This document shows, in pieces, positions 5,056 through 35,255 of a stretch of 35,255 nt of DNA (position 1 is the first letter of the stretch; every line of letters begins with the position of its first letter). The notes below the pieces were generated by a model that saw only the letters and a list, made by a program, of their open reading frames with translations, made no database searches and was not told where the DNA came from. The position numbers and the translations under genes are program-made. Origin of the DNA: Thermoplasmata archaeon (GTDB lineage: Archaea > Thermoplasmatota > SW-10-69-26 > JACQPN01 > JAJPHT01); assembly GCA_034667685.1 (NCBI GenBank), contig JAXDQU010000108.1:1-35255 (forward strand). The letters run 5' to 3'.

Positions 5056-6072
5056 TCAAGCCGCGCGCTTGCGCAGCCGCCCGAGCGCGACCGTCATGAG
5101 GTCCTCGACGCCCGCGCCCGTCTCGGAGGAGAAGGCGATCTCGCCGACCCCCGCGGTCTGGAGGTCGCTCTTGGACTCCGCGACGACGAAGGGCGTCTCG
5201 GGGAACATCGCCTTGGTGTCGGCGAGGAGCTTGAGCTGCGCTTCGAGCGAGTAGCCGCAGTGGCCGCTCGGGTCCACGAGGAAGACGATGACGTCCGCGA
5301 GGTGGCGCAGCGCCGCGATGGCCTGCATCTCGATGGCGTTGCGGTCGTCCATGTCGCGGTCGAGCAGGCCGGGCGTGTCCACGATCTGATGCTTGACGAG
5401 CTTGCGCTCGAAGTGGCCCAGCACGATGCCCTTCGTCGTGAACGGGTAGTTGGCGACCTCGGGCGTGCCGGTGCTGACCTTGCGCACGAGGCTCGACTTG
5501 CCCACGTTGGGGTAGCCCGCGACGACGATCGTGGGCATCGAGGTCTCCAGCATGGGCAGGCGGCGCAGGCTCTCGCGCGCGTCGGCCAGGATGGCGAGGT
5601 TCTTGTCGACCTGCTTGACGAGGCTCGCGATGCGCCCGTAGGCGTGCGCCTTGGCGGTGCGGACCTCCTCGGCGTAGCGCGCCTTCTTGATCTTCGGGAC
5701 GGCCTCGTCGCCGACCTCGTTGACGCGCTTGGCGGCCCAGTCGAGCGAGCCGAGCGCCTTGCGCACCTTGTCCATGTCCAGCAGGACGCCGGCCAATTCC
5801 TGGTAGAATGGGGGCAGGCCGTCGAAGCTGGGGAACTTCTTCACGAAGTTCGTCAGCGCCGCCGCGACGCTGTTCTGCACGCTGCGGACGCGCGCCAGCT
5901 CCGTCGTCTTCGTCCGGATGAAGGCGTCCGGGTTCGCGATGGTGATCTTGCTCGCGCGACGGAAGGCCGTGTCGAGGATCTCGTCGGCGTCGCGCACCGT
6001 CGGGATGCGGTCGAAGGACCGCGGCGAGACGCGCGCGAGATGGGCGCGGCTGGCAGGCGTTCCCTCGGGCAT
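5056..6072 (-). CDS. NOG1-family GTP-binding protein
   Basis: N-terminal helical NOG1 domain (IPTV..A.EILD.AFRRA, LPPFYQEL), G1 GYPNVGKSS, NYPFTTKGI, G3 DTPGLLDR, G4 SKSD. Start placed at ATG 6072. Confidence 0.93.
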   Translation of the reverse strand: MPEGTPASRAHLARVSPRSFDRIPTVRDADEILDTAFRRASKITIANPDAFIRTKTTELARVRSVQNSVAAALTNFVKKFPSFDGLPPFYQELAGVLLDMDKVRKALGSLDWAAKRVNEVGDEAVPKIKKARYAEEVRTAKAHAYGRIASLVKQVDKNLAILADARESLRRLPMLETSMPTIVVAGYPNVGKSSLVRKVSTGTPEVANYPFTTKGIVLGHFERKLVKHQIVDTPGLLDRDMDDRNAIEMQAIAALRHLADVIVFLVDPSGHCGYSLEAQLKLLADTKAMFPETPFVVAESKSDLQTAGVGEIAFSSETGAGVEDLMTVALGRLRKRAA

Positions 6073-6357
6073 GGGCGCCCCCACTCGATCCCTCTTCATG
6101 AACCTTTGCCGGCGGCCGGCTTTGCGCCAAACCCCCCCTGCACCCAAAGTCGAATGGGCTGCACCCAAACTCCGTTTCATCGGAGATCTCTGAGGGCCCG
6201 CTCGCGAGTGCTTCAGGCGAAGAATACGAGCTTAGGCGCCGGCCCGATTCGGTTCCGTTGCCAATTCGCGCCCAATCCCGTCCGCGAAAAAGCAACCGAG
6301 GCCCGGTCAACGTGACCGCTCGGAGAATCCACGTTGGCGGGGATAGGTTGCTCAGGT

Positions 6358-6696
6358 ATGAGCATGTCAGGCGCAAATCGCCGTCACCAAGACGATTTCG
6401 GCAGCCCCCCCGGCCCAACCACCACAGAGGACTCCGTCGTGCGACTCGCAGGCCGGCTCCTACTTCAGAGCGTTCGGAAGCACGACATGGAGGAAGCCTT
6501 CCGCGTGCCAGAAACGGGTTTGCACACCGCAGGCAAGAAGCGGGACGAATTCGGTTCCGTGATAGTCATGACCACAGAGGACGTGGGCCGAATCGAGCGC
6601 CTCACCGACTATCGCGAGGCGCATCTCACCGGTCAAACGAGGACGCGGGCTAGGGCAGACCCCGACGTTCTGTTTGCCAGCACAGCAAAAGGCTAA
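6358..6696 (+). CDS. Hypothetical protein
   Basis: Open frame co-oriented with the downstream island ORFs; internal 12-bp repeat ACCACAGAGGAC (TTED twice). Confidence 0.4.
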   Translation: MSMSGANRRHQDDFGSPPGPTTTEDSVVRLAGRLLLQSVRKHDMEEAFRVPETGLHTAGKKRDEFGSVIVMTTEDVGRIERLTDYREAHLTGQTRTRARADPDVLFASTAKG

Positions 6697-6722
6697 AGGA
6701 TCACATCAAAATACCGCATGCC

Positions 6723-7250
6723 ATGGACTTGCTGGAGGAGCAGGGCGTTCTGACCGCACCCTTGAGGATGCTGATCGCCTGCATCATATTCGCGGTCTTC
6801 CTAAGTCCGGCGACGCTTGTCCATTTCGTGCTTTGGCAAAGCGGCCTTGTCCACCTTCACTGGGCTTACACGCTCGTGGTGACGGCGCTAGTTGGAGCCA
6901 GCTTCTGGATCTATCCTCAATCATCACATAGGCCCGCCTCCGATAAGTCGAACAGCAGCGCTTTCGTCGTTGGTTACTTCGGACTCCTGATAGTCATCAC
7001 ATTCGTGGCAGTCTTAACAGGCGTCGTGCTGGCGTTCGCAGGGGCGACAACCGCGCTTCTCTTCGCTCTCGCCTACGCCGCAATCGAAATCGGGCTAGTT
7101 CGACGCTTCAGCCTCTCACCAGGTCTCTTCGTCGCCGCGCTCATCCTTGGTCCGCTTCTCCTCCACCGTCGGAAGGCCGCAAAGAAGGTCGCTGCCGGCA
7201 TTGAAACGGTCGCAGCTTGGCCCCGCACAAAGGCGACCACCGCGGCTTGA
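6723..7250 (+). CDS. Hypothetical multi-pass membrane protein
   Basis: About 5 hydrophobic segments followed by a basic tail. Confidence 0.7.
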   Translation: MDLLEEQGVLTAPLRMLIACIIFAVFLSPATLVHFVLWQSGLVHLHWAYTLVVTALVGASFWIYPQSSHRPASDKSNSSAFVVGYFGLLIVITFVAVLTGVVLAFAGATTALLFALAYAAIEIGLVRRFSLSPGLFVAALILGPLLLHRRKAAKKVAAGIETVAAWPRTKATTAA

Positions 7251-7266
7251 GACGCATGTGGCCGTC

Positions 7267-7641
7267 ATGCGTCGACTCCATGCACGCTTGCTGAAGTCGG
7301 CGCGCAGCGAAAATGTCCTGGTCCGGGCGCTCGGCACAGCGTTGCTCATGGTCTTCGACATTGTTTTTCACGTCATCGTCTGGGCTATCTTTGTCCTTGT
7401 CGTCTATGGCGCGTGCCGGATGTTCGTGGCTGATCCGTTCAAGTCCTTCTTCGGCATTGATGCCGACACACCCTTCCTGCTCGGCAAGATCATCGGCGTC
7501 CTAGCCCTTGCTCACGTTGCGCTTGGCGGTAATCGCCCCTTTAGTGTCCAAACGAGGTTATCTGAGGAACCTGCTTCACGACGAGTCCCCGTTGAAGAAA
7601 AGGACCCCCCACAGGAGCGGGTGAGAGCTCGAAGAAAGTGA
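7267..7641 (+). CDS. Hypothetical membrane protein
   Basis: 2-3 hydrophobic segments; ATG 17 nt after the preceding stop. Confidence 0.6.
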   Translation: MRRLHARLLKSARSENVLVRALGTALLMVFDIVFHVIVWAIFVLVVYGACRMFVADPFKSFFGIDADTPFLLGKIIGVLALAHVALGGNRPFSVQTRLSEEPASRRVPVEEKDPPQERVRARRK

Positions 7642-8089
7642 GCGCATCTGCGGGTGGCGGGACCGGCCTGCGTGCGGCGCTCAGTGGTTGCACGCGGTGC
7701 ACAAATGAGCGCGGCAACGCGGGCCCCGCCTCGCGGCGCGATGGCTGCATTCTCAAAGAACCTGCAAGGCAGACATGGTTGCGGAGGCTCGCGTGTCCGC
7801 GCAACTGCACAAGCAATCGCTCGGCCAGAACCCCAGACGATGGCGCGCCACCGTGATGGTACGGAGCGGTCGCCACGAAGAGCTAGCCGAGAAGGCTTCC
7901 GTCGACAACCACCCTAATCTGGGACAGTTGGACGAATTCGATGCGAAATAAGGGCTGTCCGACGACAAGGCCACTGAACCTACGCCTGTACTGAAAGACA
8001 CCCTGCCTATTCGCGACATTCAGGCGACCTTAAGGCGCAAGACCCCGCCGGTCGCAACGCTGATGTTCCGCCCCAAGCTCCCCCGCGCG

Positions 8090-20499: not shown

Positions 20500-21222
20500 T
20501 CAGAACAGCGGGCCGAACTTCACGTTGTCAAAGGCAACGTCGGGAGCGGGCCTGCCGCAATCGCAGCCGGCCACGTCCCCCAGGAAGAGCACGTCGGGCG
20601 GGATGACGTTGTCCGTCCCTCCCATGCCCACGGCTGCCGCGCCGTCGATGCGCAGCGACGCGAAGCGCAACGCAGGGTCGGTGTCCCAGTAGACGAACAC
20701 CTCGTAGTGGTGGCAGAGACCGTCCGTGGGCGCAGGGGTCGTCACGGGCGTGACGGCGTGGGTTCCGCTGACCGAGAAGACGAGATAGACAGTCCCGGCC
20801 CGGAAGCCGACCTCGAGGAAACGGTCCGCGTACCCCGCGCCCCCGTCCCAGTGGGAGGCGAGATCGACGACGCTGCCACCGGCGTTGGCGACGTTCGTCG
20901 CTTGGGCGTCGAACTGGAGCTGGTACTTCAGGGCCAATGGCGTGGAGATGGCCTGCCAACTGAGGTGGCCCGAGGGGAGGTTCTCGAAGAGCGCCATCGT
21001 CCCCCCTCCGGGAGCGCAGCTGGGCACGAGCGTGGGCGGCGTGCCGAAGCCGGTCGAGCCGTTCGTCCAGCCGGTCGTGCCCGCTTCGAAATCGCCGTTG
21101 GTGACGACGTCGACGAGCACGCCCGCGGCGGCAGTGGGAAGCAGCGCGAGCGCAGCGGCGGCGAGCGCGAACGCGACGCGGGAGCGCAGGCGGGCGGATG
21201 GGGTCGGGAATCGGGTTGTCAT
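20500..21222 (-). CDS. Secreted beta-sandwich protein (carbohydrate-binding/lectin-like)
   Basis: Signal peptide ending PTAAA, VVTNGDFEAG..GW at the start and FDNVKF at the end, as in galactose-binding/CBM-like jelly rolls. Confidence 0.7.
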   Translation of the reverse strand: MTTRFPTPSARLRSRVAFALAAAALALLPTAAAGVLVDVVTNGDFEAGTTGWTNGSTGFGTPPTLVPSCAPGGGTMALFENLPSGHLSWQAISTPLALKYQLQFDAQATNVANAGGSVVDLASHWDGGAGYADRFLEVGFRAGTVYLVFSVSGTHAVTPVTTPAPTDGLCHHYEVFVYWDTDPALRFASLRIDGAAAVGMGGTDNVIPPDVLFLGDVAGCDCGRPAPDVAFDNVKFGPLF

Positions 21223-21355
21223 GAGATCACCGTTGCCGGCGCGTGGCCGGCGGGAGGACATGACGCGACGGCGGGTGGACCCTTTGCAGGGAGCCGGTTG
21301 GAGCCGCAGGAAGTTGCTTGACAAAGAACACGTGACCCCACGCTGTTACGCACCC

Positions 21356-22072
21356 ATGAGCGCCGCATCGCTCGACCGCGTCCAGCTCGCCGAATGCCTG
21401 CGCGCGCTCGCGCACGAGAATCGACTGGATCTCCTGGACCTGCTTCGGGTGCCCCATGCCCTGCCGCAGGTCCGCCTCTCGCCCACGCGCCTGCTTCCGG
21501 GGGAGAACCCGGCGCGCGCGATGTCCCGGCAGGCCGTCCACGAGCACGTCGCGAAGCTTCTGGAGGTCGGGCTGCTCCTCCAGCGCGATGCGGAAGGGCG
21601 GCGCGGCCGCGAATACGTCGTTAACCCCCAGCGTCTCTACCAAATCCTGGAGGAGCTGCGCGGCGTCGCGGCCGCCTCGCCCGATCACCCCGCCGCGCGC
21701 GACGAGACCGTGCCCCTCGCGGAAGCGCCACCCGTGCCCCGCGCGCCCGGCCCACGCCTGGTCCTCGCCCACGGCCTGGCCCCCGGACAGGTCTTTCCGC
21801 TCCATCGCAACGCGCTGCGGGATGGACGGGGCTGGATCATCGGCCGGCGCGCGGGGCTCCACGTCAGCCTCGACCACGACCCATTCGTCAGCCTCGAGAA
21901 CTGCGAAATCGTCCCCGAGCCCGGCGGGTTCACCCTGGTCGACCTCCGCCACAGCAGGAACGGGACGCATCTCAACTGGTCGCGGCTGGCCCGCGGAAGC
22001 CGCGCGCATCTGAAGGCGGGAGACATCATCGGCGTGGGGCGAAGCCTCCTCGTGCTCCAGACCGAGCCATAA
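21356..22072 (+). CDS. ArsR-like winged-HTH + FHA domain transcription regulator
   Basis: N-terminal LRALAHENRLDLLDLL...MSRQAVHEHVAKLLEVGLL...REYVVN; C-terminal FHA WIIGRR...DPFVSLEN...SRNGTHLN...LKAGDIIGVG. Confidence 0.88.
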   Translation: MSAASLDRVQLAECLRALAHENRLDLLDLLRVPHALPQVRLSPTRLLPGENPARAMSRQAVHEHVAKLLEVGLLLQRDAEGRRGREYVVNPQRLYQILEELRGVAAASPDHPAARDETVPLAEAPPVPRAPGPRLVLAHGLAPGQVFPLHRNALRDGRGWIIGRRAGLHVSLDHDPFVSLENCEIVPEPGGFTLVDLRHSRNGTHLNWSRLARGSRAHLKAGDIIGVGRSLLVLQTEP

Positions 22073-22149
22073 GCACCCGCCTCCTCCGGCGGTTCCTGTT
22101 ACCCGAAGGATTTAGGATCGCGACCGCCCGTCCCCCGGCGGGCAGGCCT

Positions 22150-24144
22150 GTGGACGCGCCAGTGCTCATCCCGGAGGCCACGCTGGCAACGGCGGTCTTC
22201 GCCGTGCTGCTGGGAGCCCTGGTCCTCGCGGCTCGGTTCCAAGCCCTCAACATCGCGGCGGCCGGCTTCCTCATCTCGCGCGGCGCGGCGGACTTCGCGT
22301 ACCAGATGGCGCGGCAGGCGCCGGACGTCGCCTACGCCACGAATTGGACGGGGATCGCGCAGTGGCTGGAACTTCCCGCCGCCTCCTTCTGCGTGATGGT
22401 CGCCTATGTCCTCTTGGTCCCACGCCCAGCGCTCCACAGGAGCCTCGCGCTCGGCGCGGTCCTCCTGGTTGCCTTCGGAGTGTCCGCCTGGGCGCTCGCG
22501 CAGTACCCCGCAGGCGTCGTCGCGCGGGCGGCCTTGGGTGGCGCGCAAATGTTCGTGCCGGCCGGCTCGCCGGTCGGGCGCACCTACCGCGTGCTCACGT
22601 GGCTGGTCGAGGCAGCCGCGCTCCTCGCGGCGGCGCGCGCCGCCGTCGCGCCCCGACGAGATTCCCGGCAACGCCGGCAGATGGCGCTCGTGGGGCTGGC
22701 CTTCGCCGTTCCTCTGGTGAACGTCACGCTGCTCTGGCTCTTCGGCATTCCACGCGACGTCATCCGCGGCGCGTTCTCGGTGCAGGCTCTCATCGGCAAC
22801 AACGACGGCCCTGGATGGCTTCTGTTCGTCGCCGTGGGCGCGGGGCTGGGGATCCTTGCCGTCGCGATGAGCGTGCGAAGCCTTGCGGAAGCCTTCGAAG
22901 GGCGCCAGCGAAGGGCCGCGTATGCGCTCGTGGCCGCCGCGGTCGCATTGGCTGCATTCGACGACGCGTATTACTTCACGCTCTATGCTCACGGGCTGCC
23001 GATGCCAAGAGGCTACGTCAACGCCCGCTTCCTCGTGGTGGGCGTATCGGCGGCATGTCTCGCGTTGGCGTTCGTGCAGCACGACCTGGCGGGTTTTGAC
23101 GAGCGGATGCGCTTGCGCTTGCGGATCGCCGCGAGAATCGCCCTCATGATCACGCTCGTCGGCCTGCCGGTCACCCTGGTCCTCGCCTTCGCGGGCCTTG
23201 CGTCGTGGGTATTCGTGCTCGTCCTTGTCCTCGCCTTGGCATCCCTCACCCTCGCCGCGGCTCCCCTGGGTGCGCTCAGGGCGGCGACAAGCCGGCTCGT
23301 CCTGGCTTCGCACGAGTCTCCTGCTCGCGCGGACCCCGCGCCGCTGGGCCCCGGGCGGTTCCGCGTCGAACGCGAGCTGGCGCGTGGCACATTCGGCACG
23401 GTGCTCCTGGCCCAGGACGTGACGACGGGCCGCCGCGTCGCCCTGAAACGTCCCCACGCAGGCGGGGAGGGGCATTTCGACGAGGAGGCGCGCGCGCTCC
23501 GCAAGGTCCAGTCCCCGCGTGTCGTGCCGCTCGTCGAAGTCGTGCAGAGCGACGCCGAGAGCCTGCTGGTCCTCGATTACATGCCAGGAGGCGACCTCGC
23601 GACGCTGCTCCGCACCGAAGGGCCGCTTCCCGTGGCGCGCGCGGTTGCCCTCACAGAGGACCTGCTCGAAGGTCTTGCCGCGATCCACGCGGCCGGCCTT
23701 GCTCATGGCGACGTGAAACCATCCAACGTCCTGCTCGACGCGCAGGGGCGCGCCGTCCTGGCCGACCTCGGGGCGGCGCGTCGGATCGAAACCGCGGACC
23801 GGACGCTCACCGCCAGCTTGGGTGTCGGGACCTACCTGACCCTGGCGCCCGAGCGCCTTCGCGGGGGGCGCGCCGACGTGGCGGGTGACGTCTACGCCCT
23901 CGGAGCCGTGCTCTACCGCATGCTCACCGGCGAGGACTACATCTCCTTCGAAGGGCTGACCGCCCTGCAGGCCTCGGACGCAATCCTCCACGAGACGCCG
24001 CGCCTTCCTCATGCGCGCGTGCCCGACGCATTGGCCTGTTTCCTCATCACCGCTCTCCAAAAGGAGGCCGGCGCCCGGTATGGGGACGCGCTTGGCATGC
24101 GCTCGGCTCTCGAAAAGGCGAAATCCGAGCTGACAAGCGACTAG
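22150..24144 (+). CDS. Multi-pass membrane Hanks-type Ser/Thr protein kinase
   Basis: About 11 hydrophobic segments, then LARGTFGTV, VALK, alphaC Glu (FDEEARAL), HGDVKPSNVLL, DLG, GTYLTLAPE and DVYALG. Confidence 0.92.
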   Translation: MDAPVLIPEATLATAVFAVLLGALVLAARFQALNIAAAGFLISRGAADFAYQMARQAPDVAYATNWTGIAQWLELPAASFCVMVAYVLLVPRPALHRSLALGAVLLVAFGVSAWALAQYPAGVVARAALGGAQMFVPAGSPVGRTYRVLTWLVEAAALLAAARAAVAPRRDSRQRRQMALVGLAFAVPLVNVTLLWLFGIPRDVIRGAFSVQALIGNNDGPGWLLFVAVGAGLGILAVAMSVRSLAEAFEGRQRRAAYALVAAAVALAAFDDAYYFTLYAHGLPMPRGYVNARFLVVGVSAACLALAFVQHDLAGFDERMRLRLRIAARIALMITLVGLPVTLVLAFAGLASWVFVLVLVLALASLTLAAAPLGALRAATSRLVLASHESPARADPAPLGPGRFRVERELARGTFGTVLLAQDVTTGRRVALKRPHAGGEGHFDEEARALRKVQSPRVVPLVEVVQSDAESLLVLDYMPGGDLATLLRTEGPLPVARAVALTEDLLEGLAAIHAAGLAHGDVKPSNVLLDAQGRAVLADLGAARRIETADRTLTASLGVGTYLTLAPERLRGGRADVAGDVYALGAVLYRMLTGEDYISFEGLTALQASDAILHETPRLPHARVPDALACFLITALQKEAGARYGDALGMRSALEKAKSELTSD

Positions 24145-24244: not shown

Positions 24245-25249
24245 CTACGCCGCCATCGCGACCCTGTGGTTGATCGCGGTCTCCGCCACGTCGGCGGCGT
24301 AGGCGGCCGTGCGGCCGATGCTCTCCAGGGCGAGCGCCACGTGGAGCATGCTCTCGCCGCCGAGGCTCAGGCTCTCCTTCATGACCGATTCCTGGGTCGT
24401 CTTGAAGGCGTGCGCCTCGGCGATGATCTTGTTCGCGGCGCCGAGGTCCTGCTTGTGGAACGCGGCGAGCGCGTCGGCGAAGAGCGAGACGGCCTTGCGC
24501 GCCTGCTTCTCCAGGCGGCTCTCCAGTTTCTGCTGCACCTTGTCGTTGCGCAGGGCGTCGATGTTCTCCGCGAGGCGCGTGGCGTGGTCGGCGGTGCGCT
24601 CGATGAGGCGCGCGCAGAGCAGGTAGTTGAGCGCCTGGTTCGCGTTGAGGCCCATCTTCTGGGCGTAGGCCGGGTCGCGCAGGATCGCGTGGTACTGCTT
24701 GTTGACCATCCAGAAGAGCGAGTCCACCTCGTCGTCGCGCTCGCCGAAGACGGCGGCGAAGTCGTCCATCTTCTCGTTGAAGAGCTTCAGCGCGTCCTCC
24801 TGCATGTTGCGCGCGAGCGTCTGCATGCGGCGGAGGCCCTTGTCGATGTGGAACTCCTTGGGGTCCATGAAGTCCTGGAGCGTGATGCTGTGCGAGTCCT
24901 CTTCCGTGACCTGGATGCCGATGATGCGCTTGGAGGCCTGGCGCACGGCGCGGCGCGTCGCGGGCGAGAGCGCCTTCTTGGAGCGGATCACGATTACGTC
25001 GTAGCCGTTGAGGTAGGCGCCCACGATCGTGCGGAAGCTCGCGTCCGGGTCCTCGGCGGTCAGCTCGGCCTCGTACTTGGCCTGCTGCGCGCGGAACCGC
25101 GCGTGGGGATAGACGGCCAGGCTGCCGTCCGCCTGCGGGTTGAACCCGACGACGTCTCCCGCGCCCATCTGGGCCTGGTCGACCCAGTCCTTCGGCAGGG
25201 TGACCGTGTAGCTCGAGCCGCCCGTCAGCTGGATCTTGCGAAGCTCCAT
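24245..25249 (-). CDS. phoU: Archaeal phosphate uptake regulator PhoU (N-terminal AbrB-like DNA-binding domain + two PhoU repeats)
   Basis: MELRKIQLTGGSSYTVTLPKDWV, ERDDEVDSLF, ARLIERTADHA and LESIGRTAAYAADVAE. Confidence 0.92.
   Translation of the reverse strand: MELRKIQLTGGSSYTVTLPKDWVDQAQMGAGDVVGFNPQADGSLAVYPHARFRAQQAKYEAELTAEDPDASFRTIVGAYLNGYDVIVIRSKKALSPATRRAVRQASKRIIGIQVTEEDSHSITLQDFMDPKEFHIDKGLRRMQTLARNMQEDALKLFNEKMDDFAAVFGERDDEVDSLFWMVNKQYHAILRDPAYAQKMGLNANQALNYLLCARLIERTADHATRLAENIDALRNDKVQQKLESRLEKQARKAVSLFADALAAFHKQDLGAANKIIAEAHAFKTTQESVMKESLSLGGESMLHVALALESIGRTAAYAADVAETAINHRVAMAA
24247..24277. repeat. phoU 3' end, partner of the direct repeat (att-like, right)
   Basis: ACGCCGCCATCGCGACCCTGTGGTTGATCGC matches 20306-20336 at 29/31. 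Confidence 0.88.
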
Positions 25250-25435: not shown

Positions 25436-26163
25436 GTGGACCACCGTGAGCATCCCACCGATCGCGCGACGCGCTGGGCCCTCACGCTCGTCGCGGCCGC
25501 GGTCGCGCTGACGGTGCTCGCCATCGGCTTCGTGCTCGCCACGCACGCATGGGACGCCATCAAGCTCTTCGGGTGGGGGCTGCTCGCGGGCATGCTGAGC
25601 ATCGTCTTCGGCATGTGGGCCTCTTCCTCGTGGCGCCCAAGCTGCGCGCGTCGTTCGAGCCGTGGGTTCTGCATCACCTCGGCTGGATGCACGTCTGGGG
25701 CTCGCGCGCGCAGGGCATCGGCTTCCTCCTCGCGGGGATCGTGCTCGCGATCATGATCCTGCCCACCATCACGAGCATCGCGCGCGACGCGCTCCTCGCC
25801 GTTCCCCGCCTGGAGCGCGAGGCCGCGTACGCGCTGGGCGCCACGCGCTGGGAGGTGGCGCGCGCGGCGCTGAAGTCCGCGAAGGCCGGCCTCTTCGCCG
25901 CCGCGACGCTCGGCTTGGGGCGCGCCCTCGGGGAAACGATTGCCGTTACTTTGGTCATCGGCAACCGCCCCAACGCGCACTTCCACCTCTTCGACCAGGG
26001 GCAGACGCTGGCCTCGACGCTCGCGACGCAGATCGGCGAGGCGAGCGACCCCCTCTTCCTCTCCGCGCTGATCGCGCTGGGCCTCATCCTCTTCGTCATC
26101 ACGCTCGTGGTCAACCTGAGCGCGCGCCTCGTCATCGAGCGCCCCTGGAGGAAGCACGCTTGA
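25436..26163 (+). pseudogene. pstC: pstC phosphate ABC permease pseudogene (internal deletion + frameshift)
   Basis: The N-part ..AWDAIKLFGWG jumps directly to LLAGMLSIVFGMW; frameshift at ~25616-25620; the C-part is intact PstC (IMILPTITSIARDALLAVP..EAAYALGATRWE..LGLGRALGETIAV). Confidence 0.85.
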
Positions 26164-34725: not shown

Positions 34726-35255
34726 TCAGCGCAGCGTGATGGTGGTGTCCGTCGAGTACGTGCTCGGCGTCTTGAAGTCGGCCGCGACGGGGGTGCCGGT
34801 CTCGGGGATCAGCGAGAGCTGCACCGAAGTGCGCGGCGCCAGCGTCGCGCCCAGGTCGAACTGGAGCTCCACGAGGTCGCCGCTCGACATCACGCCGGTG
34901 TTGTTCGTGCCGCGGATCCAGGTCGGGCTGAAGCCGGGCGAGCCATAGTTGTAGGTGTAGACGTTCGTGCCGTCCGTGTACCGGATGATGAGCTTGGTCA
35001 GGTCCATCGGGAGCGCGCCGGCCGAGAGCTCGACCTGGGTCTTCACGCGATAGATGTCGACGCCCGTGCCGTTGCGGATGCCGTACACGCCGGCGACCTT
35101 GAGGTTCGAGGAGACCTCCTGCGTGGCTTCCTTGCCGGTCGACTGGGCGCGCTGCTGCAGCGTGCCGGTGGTGTTGATCAGCACCGCGGCCGCGACGGCC
35201 GCGACGAGGACCATCGCGATGAACACGATCAGGGTACCGACGCCGACCTCGGCGC
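34726..35255 (-). CDS. arlB: Archaellin (archaeal flagellin), 5' end outside window
   Basis: AEVGVGTLIVFIAMVLVAAVAAAVLINTTGTLQQRAQSTG conserved N-terminus and C-terminal LIPETGTP. Confidence 0.93.
   Translation of the reverse strand, partial: AEVGVGTLIVFIAMVLVAAVAAAVLINTTGTLQQRAQSTGKEATQEVSSNLKVAGVYGIRNGTGVDIYRVKTQVELSAGALPMDLTKLIIRYTDGTNVYTYNYGSPGFSPTWIRGTNNTGVMSSGDLVELQFDLGATLAPRTSVQLSLIPETGTPVAADFKTPSTYSTDTTITLR

Follow-up and report, generated by a model that had tools for sequence, protein, structure and literature searches.

The locus and its divergent gene

The window is the whole stretch of DNA that was analysed, 35,255 nt long. It comes from the 99%-complete, 3.48 Mb genome of a soil archaeon of the Thermoplasmatota, for which two soil-metagenome DNA datasets, and no RNA dataset, are listed. 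Three genes were found at the coordinates given in the original prediction. P0003 (positions 20500-21222, reverse strand, 240 aa) is separated by a divergent intergenic region of 133 nt (21223-21355) from P0001 (21356-22072, forward strand, 238 aa), which encodes an HTH-FHA regulator, as identified by Pfam and by profile matches to the PDB. A spacer of 77 nt (22073-22149) lies between the stop codon of the regulator and the GTG start of a kinase gene (22150-24144, forward strand, 664 aa), whose product has a Hanks-type kinase domain behind a membrane domain. The GC3 of the regulator-kinase pair is 0.84-0.86 and that of neighbouring genes 0.92-0.99. No Rfam match was obtained over the whole window.

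The divergent gene had been described as encoding a secreted beta-sandwich protein, and P0003 agrees with this description. Its N-terminus was judged by eye to be signal-peptide-like, and the Atlas model (pTM 0.78) predicts a jelly-roll fold, with jelly-roll and heparin-lyase-I-like beta-sandwiches matching at TM 0.65-0.69. Searches of Pfam and NCBIfam with P0003 gave no match. The further claim, that this protein is the output of the module, was not supported: P0003 has no paralog in its own genome, only one of 20 relatives had a match to it (E 9e-9), and the 12 loci compared showed no recurring third gene family beside the pairs. Judged from these sequence comparisons, P0003 is a neighbour of the module and does not belong to its conserved parts.

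In the intergenic region, TTGACAAAGAAC at 21317-21328 is the sole AT-rich patch. It lies about 30-38 nt upstream of the ATG of the regulator and is a candidate TATA-like element of a putative regulator promoter. GGTGAT immediately precedes the ATG of P0003. A three-part unit, in which P0003 is the direct and dedicated output of the regulator through the shared 133-nt region, would suit the divergent arrangement and the short common region, and adjacent promoters are common targets of ArsR-family regulators. Such a unit is unlikely, given the distribution of P0003 described above, the lack of a convincing operator palindrome in 21223-21355 and the finding that regulator and kinase are divergent to each other in just 2 of 48 pairs in relatives. 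No defensible shared operator emerged from inspection of the 150 nt preceding each of the 11 regulator genes of the genome.

Domains of the kinase and the regulator

Residues 404-663 of the kinase, together with the stop codon, are encoded at 23359-24144 on the forward strand and make up a Hanks-type Ser/Thr kinase domain. Pkinase (PF00069) matched residues 405-599 with an E of 5e-37 (score 128.1 bits, cut-off 31.7), and also matched 10 of 10 kinase paralogs in the same genome. K433, E446, D521, N526, D539 and P567-E568 were invariant in the ten kinases. The window kinase is of the non-RD type (H519-G-D521), and DLG replaces DFG at D539. With its catalytic residues intact, it is predicted to have Hanks-kinase phosphotransfer activity. 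Complex prediction with kinase residues 395-664 and P0001 resulted in a score of 0.00, which is informative in neither direction. Three of the 10 kinases matched TCAD9 (E 0.008), but too weakly to be considered, and a defence system was rejected, as the partial NCBIfam MAD6/PglW matches span the generic kinase domain only and lie far below the cut-offs.

The polytopic membrane domain covers residues 1-389 (22150-23316, forward strand). About 11 transmembrane segments had been predicted for the N-terminal region, and the AlphaFold2 model (pLDDT 79.3, pTM 0.79) agrees with this number, showing 11 long helices within residues 6-389 and short loops. A crude hydropathy scan gave 8 segments at the threshold chosen. 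The membrane domain is dedicated to kinases: a kinase domain, counted with a purpose-built HMM, was present in 138 of the 149 best representatives. None of the ten membrane domains of the genome matched HisKA_7TM (PF16927) at E<=1; matches to PF16927 were found in the N-termini of paired kinases of relatives, up to over the cut-off (G003:C23, G012:C418, G010:C12). Comparison of the membrane domain with HisKA_7TM gave a probability of 59%, an E of 9e-5 and 80 columns in hhalign, and a feature score of 0.90 with a structure TM of 0.44-0.50 in Atlas. The domain may be a distant relative of HisKA_7TM. A Foldseek search of the PDB with the membrane-domain model gave no hit at E<=0.001, and the best matches were GPCRs at a TM of about 0.25, so that no solved fold can be named. 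A word-based search with the domain returned the self-match alone.

All FHA motifs expected in P0001 were found, namely G163-R164, S179 and S-R-N-G-T at 200-204. The FHA domain takes up about residues 132-236 (21749-22063, forward strand). FHA PF00498 matched residues 160-228 in Pfam (E 7e-10; score 39.6 bits, cut-off 20.7), and the domain was matched in 85 of 85 P0001 homologs. The residues of the phosphothreonine pocket, G163, R164, S179 and N202, were kept in 150 of 150 unique homologs; the histidine of the S-x-x-H motif is Asn in P0001 and in the family consensus. GarA/OdhI were the nearest solved FHA proteins to the regulator family profile (E 2e-11), and EmbR (2fez) matched with an E of 1.7e-8.

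GarA and OdhI of the Actinobacteria are metabolic-enzyme regulators. After phosphorylation, a Thr in the flexible segment that precedes their FHA domain is bound by the protein's own FHA. On conservation, a threonine of this kind is present in P0001. Thr118 (codon at 21707-21709, forward strand), in the linker sequence D-E-T-V, lies in an equivalent kind of segment. It is retained by 149 of the 150 unique homologs, with flanking columns at no more than about 40%; in the 85 aligned homologs it was Thr in every case, inside an otherwise variable linker. T118 is the predicted phospho-acceptor and ligand of the FHA domain. About 30 residues separate the acceptor motif of GarA/OdhI, ETTS, from the FHA core, whereas T118 is about 14 residues from it, a distance that may be short for binding in cis. 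A second difference is that P0001 carries a winged helix, whereas GarA and OdhI have no DNA-binding domain.

The regulator could instead act unphosphorylated, its FHA domain binding the autophosphorylated kinase, so that an active kinase would sequester the transcription factor at the membrane, much as an anti-sigma factor does its target, and free it when the signal ends. An intact phosphothreonine pocket and a kinase that is membrane-anchored in the model are consistent with such tethering, and GarA-PknB and EmbR-PknH are established examples of an FHA domain docking on the phosphosites of a kinase, according to the available part of PMC6213207. It is nevertheless doubtful, because it leaves unexplained the near-invariance of T118 within a variable linker. 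Phosphorylation of T118 remains the preferred reading.

P0001 begins with an ArsR-clan winged helix (about residues 10-100), followed by the variable linker and the C-terminal FHA domain. The Pfam match of its N-terminus to HTH_20/ArsR was weak (E 0.002), its 18.5 bits falling short of the cut-off of 27, and at E<=0.01 HTH_20 (PF12840) was found in 35 and HTH_5 (PF01022) in 10 of the 85 homologs. The sub-threshold match and the low proportion of HTH_20 matches would agree with an adaptor for kinase regulation or phosphoprotein recruitment, in which the winged helix serves protein contacts or dimerisation; Sulfolobus ArnA works via a protein partner, ArnB, in the portion of PMC6509490 available. 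A role as adaptor and not as transcription factor is very unlikely, since the family profile matched solved ArsR-family DNA-binding domains in the PDB (2oqg, E 6.6e-6; 3f6v, E 9.4e-5) and the recognition-helix positions Q59 and H64 were kept in 145 and 150 of 150 homologs, respectively. P0001 is best read as a DNA-binding regulator. Neither Trans_reg_C nor BTAD was matched by P0001 or among the families of the 85 homologs, and the same was true of zinc-finger families, the N-terminus being a winged helix. Same-genus "orthologs" of P0001 were merely 36-50% identical, too distant for comparison of neighbourhoods or promoters, and a related-locus search of genome contigs with P0001 as query recovered nothing.

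Pairing and joint duplication

The genome contains 11 full-length HTH-FHA genes and 11 membrane kinases, and 10 of the 11 HTH-FHA genes adjoin a membrane kinase. The window pair belongs to a family of 11 paralogous sets. Stretches within 5 kb of a kinase match make up roughly 3.7% of the genome, which gives a chance expectation of about 0.4 HTH-FHA genes near a kinase, compared to the ten observed. Chance placement falls far short of explaining the adjacency. Of the 59 HTH-FHA genes in ten relatives, 48 were located 5 kb or less from a kinase domain, 42 of them 2 kb or less, and 11 had no kinase within 5 kb. Viewed in reverse, an HTH-FHA gene was present within 5 kb of 51 of 68 kinase matches. 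In these genomes, homologues of the two genes are commonly and not rarely adjacent. In five genomes of other classes, adjacency held in 22 of 24 cases, and four gene orders were seen overall. The HTH-FHA family was present in 21 of 21 genomes of the class (135 matches), with up to 14 regulator copies per genome, and the pair extends to three or more further families of the phylum.

Convergent orientation was found in 25 of the 48 pairs in relatives and in 6 of 10 in the window's own genome. With about half of the pairs convergent, most are not operons. Two pairs of the own genome have an overlapping stop and start (GTGA, ATGA), and in one the start follows right after the stop (TAGATG).

Divergence between regulator paralogs ran parallel to that between kinase paralogs (r=0.87, Mantel 0/20000), and the best paralog was concordant between regulator and kinase in 7 of 9 pairs. 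The pair therefore duplicates as a unit. Any linked genes that co-duplicate should diverge in parallel, and the pattern shows the unit of duplication, not specificity. Together with the adjacency and the intact catalytic and phosphothreonine-binding residues, joint duplication bears out the conserved kinase/HTH-FHA pair of the original prediction. Hitch-hiking duplication or a mobile cassette of functionally unlinked genes, which would give correlated divergence unaided and would fit the lower GC3 of the window pair, is highly improbable in view of an adjacency that holds over four gene orders and in other classes, and of the biochemical complementarity of FHA domains and Hanks kinases.

Proposed switch and related systems

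In the preferred model, to which we assign a probability of roughly 0.7, a membrane sensor kinase phosphorylates its cognate regulator, and a GarA-like phosphothreonine-FHA switch changes DNA binding. The kinase would act as a membrane sensor with its N-terminus outside and its catalytic domain in the cytoplasm. As its membrane domain has 11 helices and is poor in loops, the stimulus is most likely sensed within or at the membrane. Activation would lead to autophosphorylation of the kinase, and the FHA domain of the regulator would dock on a phosphothreonine of its cognate kinase. The docked kinase could then phosphorylate T118 in the linker, and pThr118 would be bound by the regulator's own pocket (G163-R164, S179, N202), either in cis or across an ArsR-type dimer. 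This capture would alter DNA binding by the winged helix and change transcription of a putative regulon. PP2C_2 and PP2C profiles gave no match in the 99%-complete genome, in a search that covered phosphatases of the PP2C type; without a PP2C-type phosphatase, reversal of phosphorylation is unexplained by the model.

The known kinase/FHA-regulator partnerships, among them PknH/EmbR and ArnA, are isolated cases, and these two are precedents for the pairing described here. Bacterial Hanks kinases are usually few, with pleiotropic targets. PknH is a single-pass protein with an extracytoplasmic sensor, whereas the membrane domain of the window kinase consists of 11 helices without a large loop. 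Several kinases target EmbR, whereas the archaeal pairs are one-to-one and amplified 11-fold. EmbR also combines an OmpR/SARP-type winged helix with BTAD, whereas the winged helix of P0001 is ArsR-type and comes without a BTAD match. P0001 is not a member of the EmbR type, but by analogy would work like one. As described in the accessible text of PMC6213207, the gene for the membrane Hanks kinase PknH of Mycobacterium tuberculosis likewise lies beside that of a DNA-binding regulator with a C-terminal FHA domain, and the EmbR FHA domain mediates phosphorylation by PknH, upon which promoter binding changes.

The Sulfolobales protein ST0829/ArnA, which consists of a zinc ribbon and an FHA domain, is the substrate of a Hanks kinase, and binding to a promoter was reported for it (PMC5007285, in part). 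The interaction requires R, S, T and N of the FHA domain, and in both ST1565-ST0829 and ArnC,D-ArnA-ArnB archaeal Hanks kinases phosphorylate or interact with an FHA protein that affects transcription of archaellum genes, as in the pair described here an archaeal Hanks kinase would act on an FHA protein (available sections of PMC5007285 and PMC6509490). ArnA differs from P0001 in having a zinc ribbon and a vWA partner, ArnB, in place of a winged helix, and its system is single and from another phylum, whereas the HTH-FHA pairs form a paralogous family. Gene adjacency of ArnA with a kinase is not reported in those sections of the two papers. The view that such an architecture had not been described in archaea stands for the pair of winged-helix-FHA protein and polytopic kinase, of which the literature searches gave no description, but not for archaeal kinase/FHA regulation in general, given the ST0829/ArnA precedent.

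HisKA_7TM is known as a sensor domain of archaeal histidine kinases (PMC5847659, available part). Two-component systems with this domain resemble the pairs in combining a polytopic sensor kinase with a cognate cytoplasmic DNA-binding partner, and in the amplification of insulated-looking pairs; their sensors may be homologous to the kinase's membrane domain. The difference lies in the chemistry, His-to-Asp transfer in two-component systems and Thr phosphorylation read by an FHA domain in the archaeal pair. With paired genes, duplication as a unit and multiple copies per genome, the archaeal partnership is two-component-like and looks like a threonine-based, previously undescribed counterpart of bacterial two-component signalling. 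The fuller proposal is a system, parallel to His-Asp signalling, of insulated, one-to-one pairs of HisKA_7TM-derived Hanks kinases and ArsR-FHA regulators, with specificity and switching based on phosphorylated T118 as read by the regulator's own FHA domain, and with amplification by duplication of whole pairs; we put its chances at about even. If confirmed, the two-component-like partnership would offer a clean natural system for the study of partner specificity in Ser/Thr-kinase signalling and a new class of archaeal transcription-factor switch; T118 is a concrete single-residue prediction. Phosphothreonine signalling in place of a His-Asp relay, as originally proposed, holds for the module, as no HisKA, HATPase_c or REC domain was matched in P0001 or the window kinase (Pfam, NCBIfam), but not for the genome, in which 26 receiver-domain and 24 HATPase_c matches exceeded the cut-off.

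Kinase-regulator pairs in the source genome

The original prediction of three genes in this part of the window proved correct. The divergent secreted-looking gene P0003 lies at 20500-21222 (minus strand, 240 aa), the HTH-FHA regulator P0001 at 21356-22072 (plus strand, 238 aa) and the membrane Hanks-type kinase P0002 at 22150-24144 (plus strand, 664 aa; 660 aa in the database record, which starts four codons later). The FHA domain of P0001 (residues 160-228) scored above the Pfam cut-off (39.6 bits vs 20.7), and the HTH_20/ArsR match at its N-terminus was sub-threshold (18.5 bits vs 27). The Pkinase domain of P0002 covers residues 405-599 (E 5e-37); its first approximately 390 residues matched no Pfam or NCBIfam family. 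Base composition of the window is about 70% G+C. GC3 was 0.84-0.86 for the module (21356-24144) and 0.88 for P0003, compared to 0.92-0.99 for most neighbouring genes and 0.94-0.98 for the other paralogous kinases.

The pair of kinase and HTH-FHA regulator is a real, conserved kinase-regulator module, as predicted; conserved adjacency, co-duplication and intact residues all argue for it. The source genome (3.48 Mb, 99% complete, sequencing runs listed as soil metagenomes only) contained eight Pfam FHA and 12 Pkinase matches. All eight FHA proteins were HTH-FHA paralogs of 228-239 aa with 33-39% identity to P0001, and a profile of the eight retrieved three further full-length copies, on contigs C122, C25 and C12, that have no Pfam FHA match. 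A kinase profile identified ten complete membrane kinases; two kinase fragments, each at the end of a contig (C109 and C88), together probably form an eleventh. A membrane kinase adjoined 10 of the 11 regulators. Kinase matches with 5 kb on either side of them cover about 3.7% of the genome, so that chance alone would give about 0.4 such regulators. A regulator on C17 and a kinase on C85 were unpaired.

Six of the ten pairs were convergent, and in five of these (C31/L001, C97/L006, C122/L011, C12/L009 and C25/L010) the 3' ends overlapped by 11-96 nt, a conserved tail-to-tail arrangement that hints at antisense or termination coupling. The regulator preceded the kinase in three pairs, in the window (77-nt gap), on C28 (GTGA overlap) and on C95 (TAGATG), and followed it only on C54 (ATGA overlap). 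Pairwise-identity matrices of regulators and partner kinases were correlated over nine pairs (r=0.87, reached by none of 20000 permutations), and the nearest paralog of both genes was at the same locus in 7/9 pairs. Judged from these comparisons, the kinase-regulator pair is the unit of duplication. Such parallel divergence is expected of linked genes duplicating together and does not alone prove specificity.

In six of the ten complete kinases (L008/C85, L003/C54, L002/C28, L010/C25, L006/C97 and L004/C95), a segment of about 45 aa with the conserved pattern L-x-x-L-R-x-x-L/F-G-I/L/V-S/T-x-x-E separates the kinase domain from the last membrane helix; the window copy lacks it. The segment had no confident family match (TCAD9 in 3/10 kinases, E 0.008). 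A Kae1-Bud32 fusion is encoded elsewhere in the genome and, together with homologs whose source is given as, for example, "Candidatus Thermoplasmatota archaeon", assigns the organism to the archaeal phylum Thermoplasmatota.

Relatives and conserved residues

Full-length HTH-FHA genes were found in 21/21 species genomes of the class of Thermoplasmatota to which the source genome belongs (E<=1e-30; 135 matches, 1-14 per genome). At E<=1e-25, 32 of 401 genomes sampled across the phylum had a match, namely the 21 of the class and 11 from three further families (9/19 searched in one and a single genome apiece in the remaining two); with the seven best candidates scored per genome, 369 had none. The expectation that HTH-FHA genes would recur beside membrane kinases was borne out in the source genome and also in ten relatives, where scripted positions put 48 of the 59 HTH-FHA matches listed no more than 5 kb from a Pkinase match of the same contig, and 42 of them no more than 2 kb away. 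In the five genomes of other classes among the ten, the count was 22/24. Conversely, 51/68 kinase matches had an HTH-FHA match within 5 kb. Convergent order was again the commonest (25/48), followed by regulator-then-kinase (11), kinase-then-regulator (10) and divergent (2). For eleven regulators there was no kinase in the vicinity; at least two of these lie at the end of a contig. Paralogs turn over fast, since the best same-genus matches to P0001 reached only 36-50% identity.

Nine residues were invariant over ten kinases (K433, E446, H519, D521, N526, D539, P567, E568 and R643). The window kinase is non-RD (HGD), with DLG present. The FHA pocket residues G163, R164, S179 and N202, as well as D175 and H64, were present in 150/150 unique HTH-FHA proteins. 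Thr118, in an otherwise variable linker whose flanking columns nowhere exceed about 40% conservation, was found in 149/150, a count tilted slightly towards the hypothesis because MAFFT can align isolated Thr residues in a variable region; in the one protein that lacks it, a Thr stands two positions upstream. All 11 copies of the source genome have the linker Thr. In profile searches the nearest solved FHA relatives were GarA/OdhI (E 2e-11), with EmbR at 1.7e-8, and the N-terminal half matched the ArsR-family chains 2oqg (6.6e-6) and 3f6v (9.4e-5). Among 85 homologs, FHA was matched in 85 and HTH_20 in 35. Database annotation of the proteins goes no further than "FHA domain-containing protein" and "ArsR family regulator".

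Membrane domain and divergent gene

The approximately 11 TM segments predicted for the kinase N-terminus agree with an AlphaFold2 model from 118 aligned sequences, which has 11 long helices with short connecting loops (pLDDT 79.3, pTM 0.79). Arg-rich loops at 166-171, 242-251 and 311-317 are consistent with an N-out, C-in topology. A membrane-domain profile matched 546 cluster representatives among 1.84 billion at E<=1e-3, and 197 at E<=1e-10. A kinase domain was present in 138 of the best 149; the other 11 were 118-450 aa long. A free-standing copy of the domain (E 4e-22), without kinase domain and with one in-frame TGA, lies at C7:4591-5865 (plus strand); elsewhere, five representatives of 434-450 aa are likewise without kinase.

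No solved structure resembled the membrane-domain model. An Atlas feature score of 0.90 (TM 0.44-0.50), an hhalign match over 80 columns (probability 59%, E 9e-5) and PF16927 matches, some over cut-off, at the N-termini of paired kinases in relatives suggest a possible relationship to HisKA_7TM; against it, none of the ten copies in the source genome matched PF16927 at E<=1. PMC5847659 places HisKA_7TM in archaeal histidine kinases. The proposal that Thr phosphorylation replaces His-Asp relay held only for the Thr-based module: the genome also yields, above cut-off, 26 matches to receiver domains and 24 to HATPase_c, so the Thr system runs alongside His-Asp signalling. No PP2C or PP2C_2 match was found in the whole genome despite its 11 Hanks kinases.

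The suggestion that the secreted divergent gene is the output of the module was not sustained. P0003 has the look of a secreted protein, without a Pfam or NCBIfam match, and in its Atlas model it is similar to jelly-roll lyase/CBM-like sandwiches. It had no paralog in the source genome and a homolog in 1/20 relatives searched, and no third gene family recurred among 12 loci compared. A single AT-rich patch was seen in the P0003/P0001 intergenic region, and no palindrome there was convincing. P0003 as target is possible but unsupported.

Candidate phosphothreonine switch

P0002 is probably a sensor kinase and P0001 its cognate transcription factor. The proposed steps follow two analogies, the GarA/OdhI switch and EmbR/PknH (PMC6213207). 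The FHA domain would dock on the autophosphorylated kinase, which would then phosphorylate T118; an FHA pocket would bind pT118, in cis or across a dimer, and this capture would alter DNA binding. Only about 14 residues separate T118 from the FHA core that follows it, a spacing that could make trans binding more likely. PMC5007285 and PMC6509490 provide an archaeal precedent in Sulfolobus ST0829/ArnA, an FHA protein with kinases, and bioRxiv 10.1101/2024.02.06.579148 an FHA-ESCRT association in haloarchaea. The module is a variant of the known kinase/FHA-regulator theme with two-component-like organisation, and its mechanism is one we infer. Full-text searches, with subscription journals and supplementary files outside their scope, returned no description of the wHTH-FHA/polytopic-kinase architecture.

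Directly downstream of the kinase, an AbrB/MazE-like and PhoU fusion protein (24245-25249, minus strand; PhoU E 1e-18) and a membrane permease-like gene beside it (25549-26163, plus strand) are probably a phosphate-uptake locus. Just beyond P0003, 18040-20220 (minus strand) encodes a 726-aa protein whose hydrophobic N-terminus resembles that of archaeal pilins; its DUF7262 match is weak and below cut-off (E 7e-5). No Rfam match was found in the window. The region 6001-8000 has about 61% G+C, and a crude ORF finder picked no high-GC3 ORF in it. The N-terminus of the ORF at 34726-35226 (minus strand) presumably resembles an archaellin or type IV pilin-like signal.
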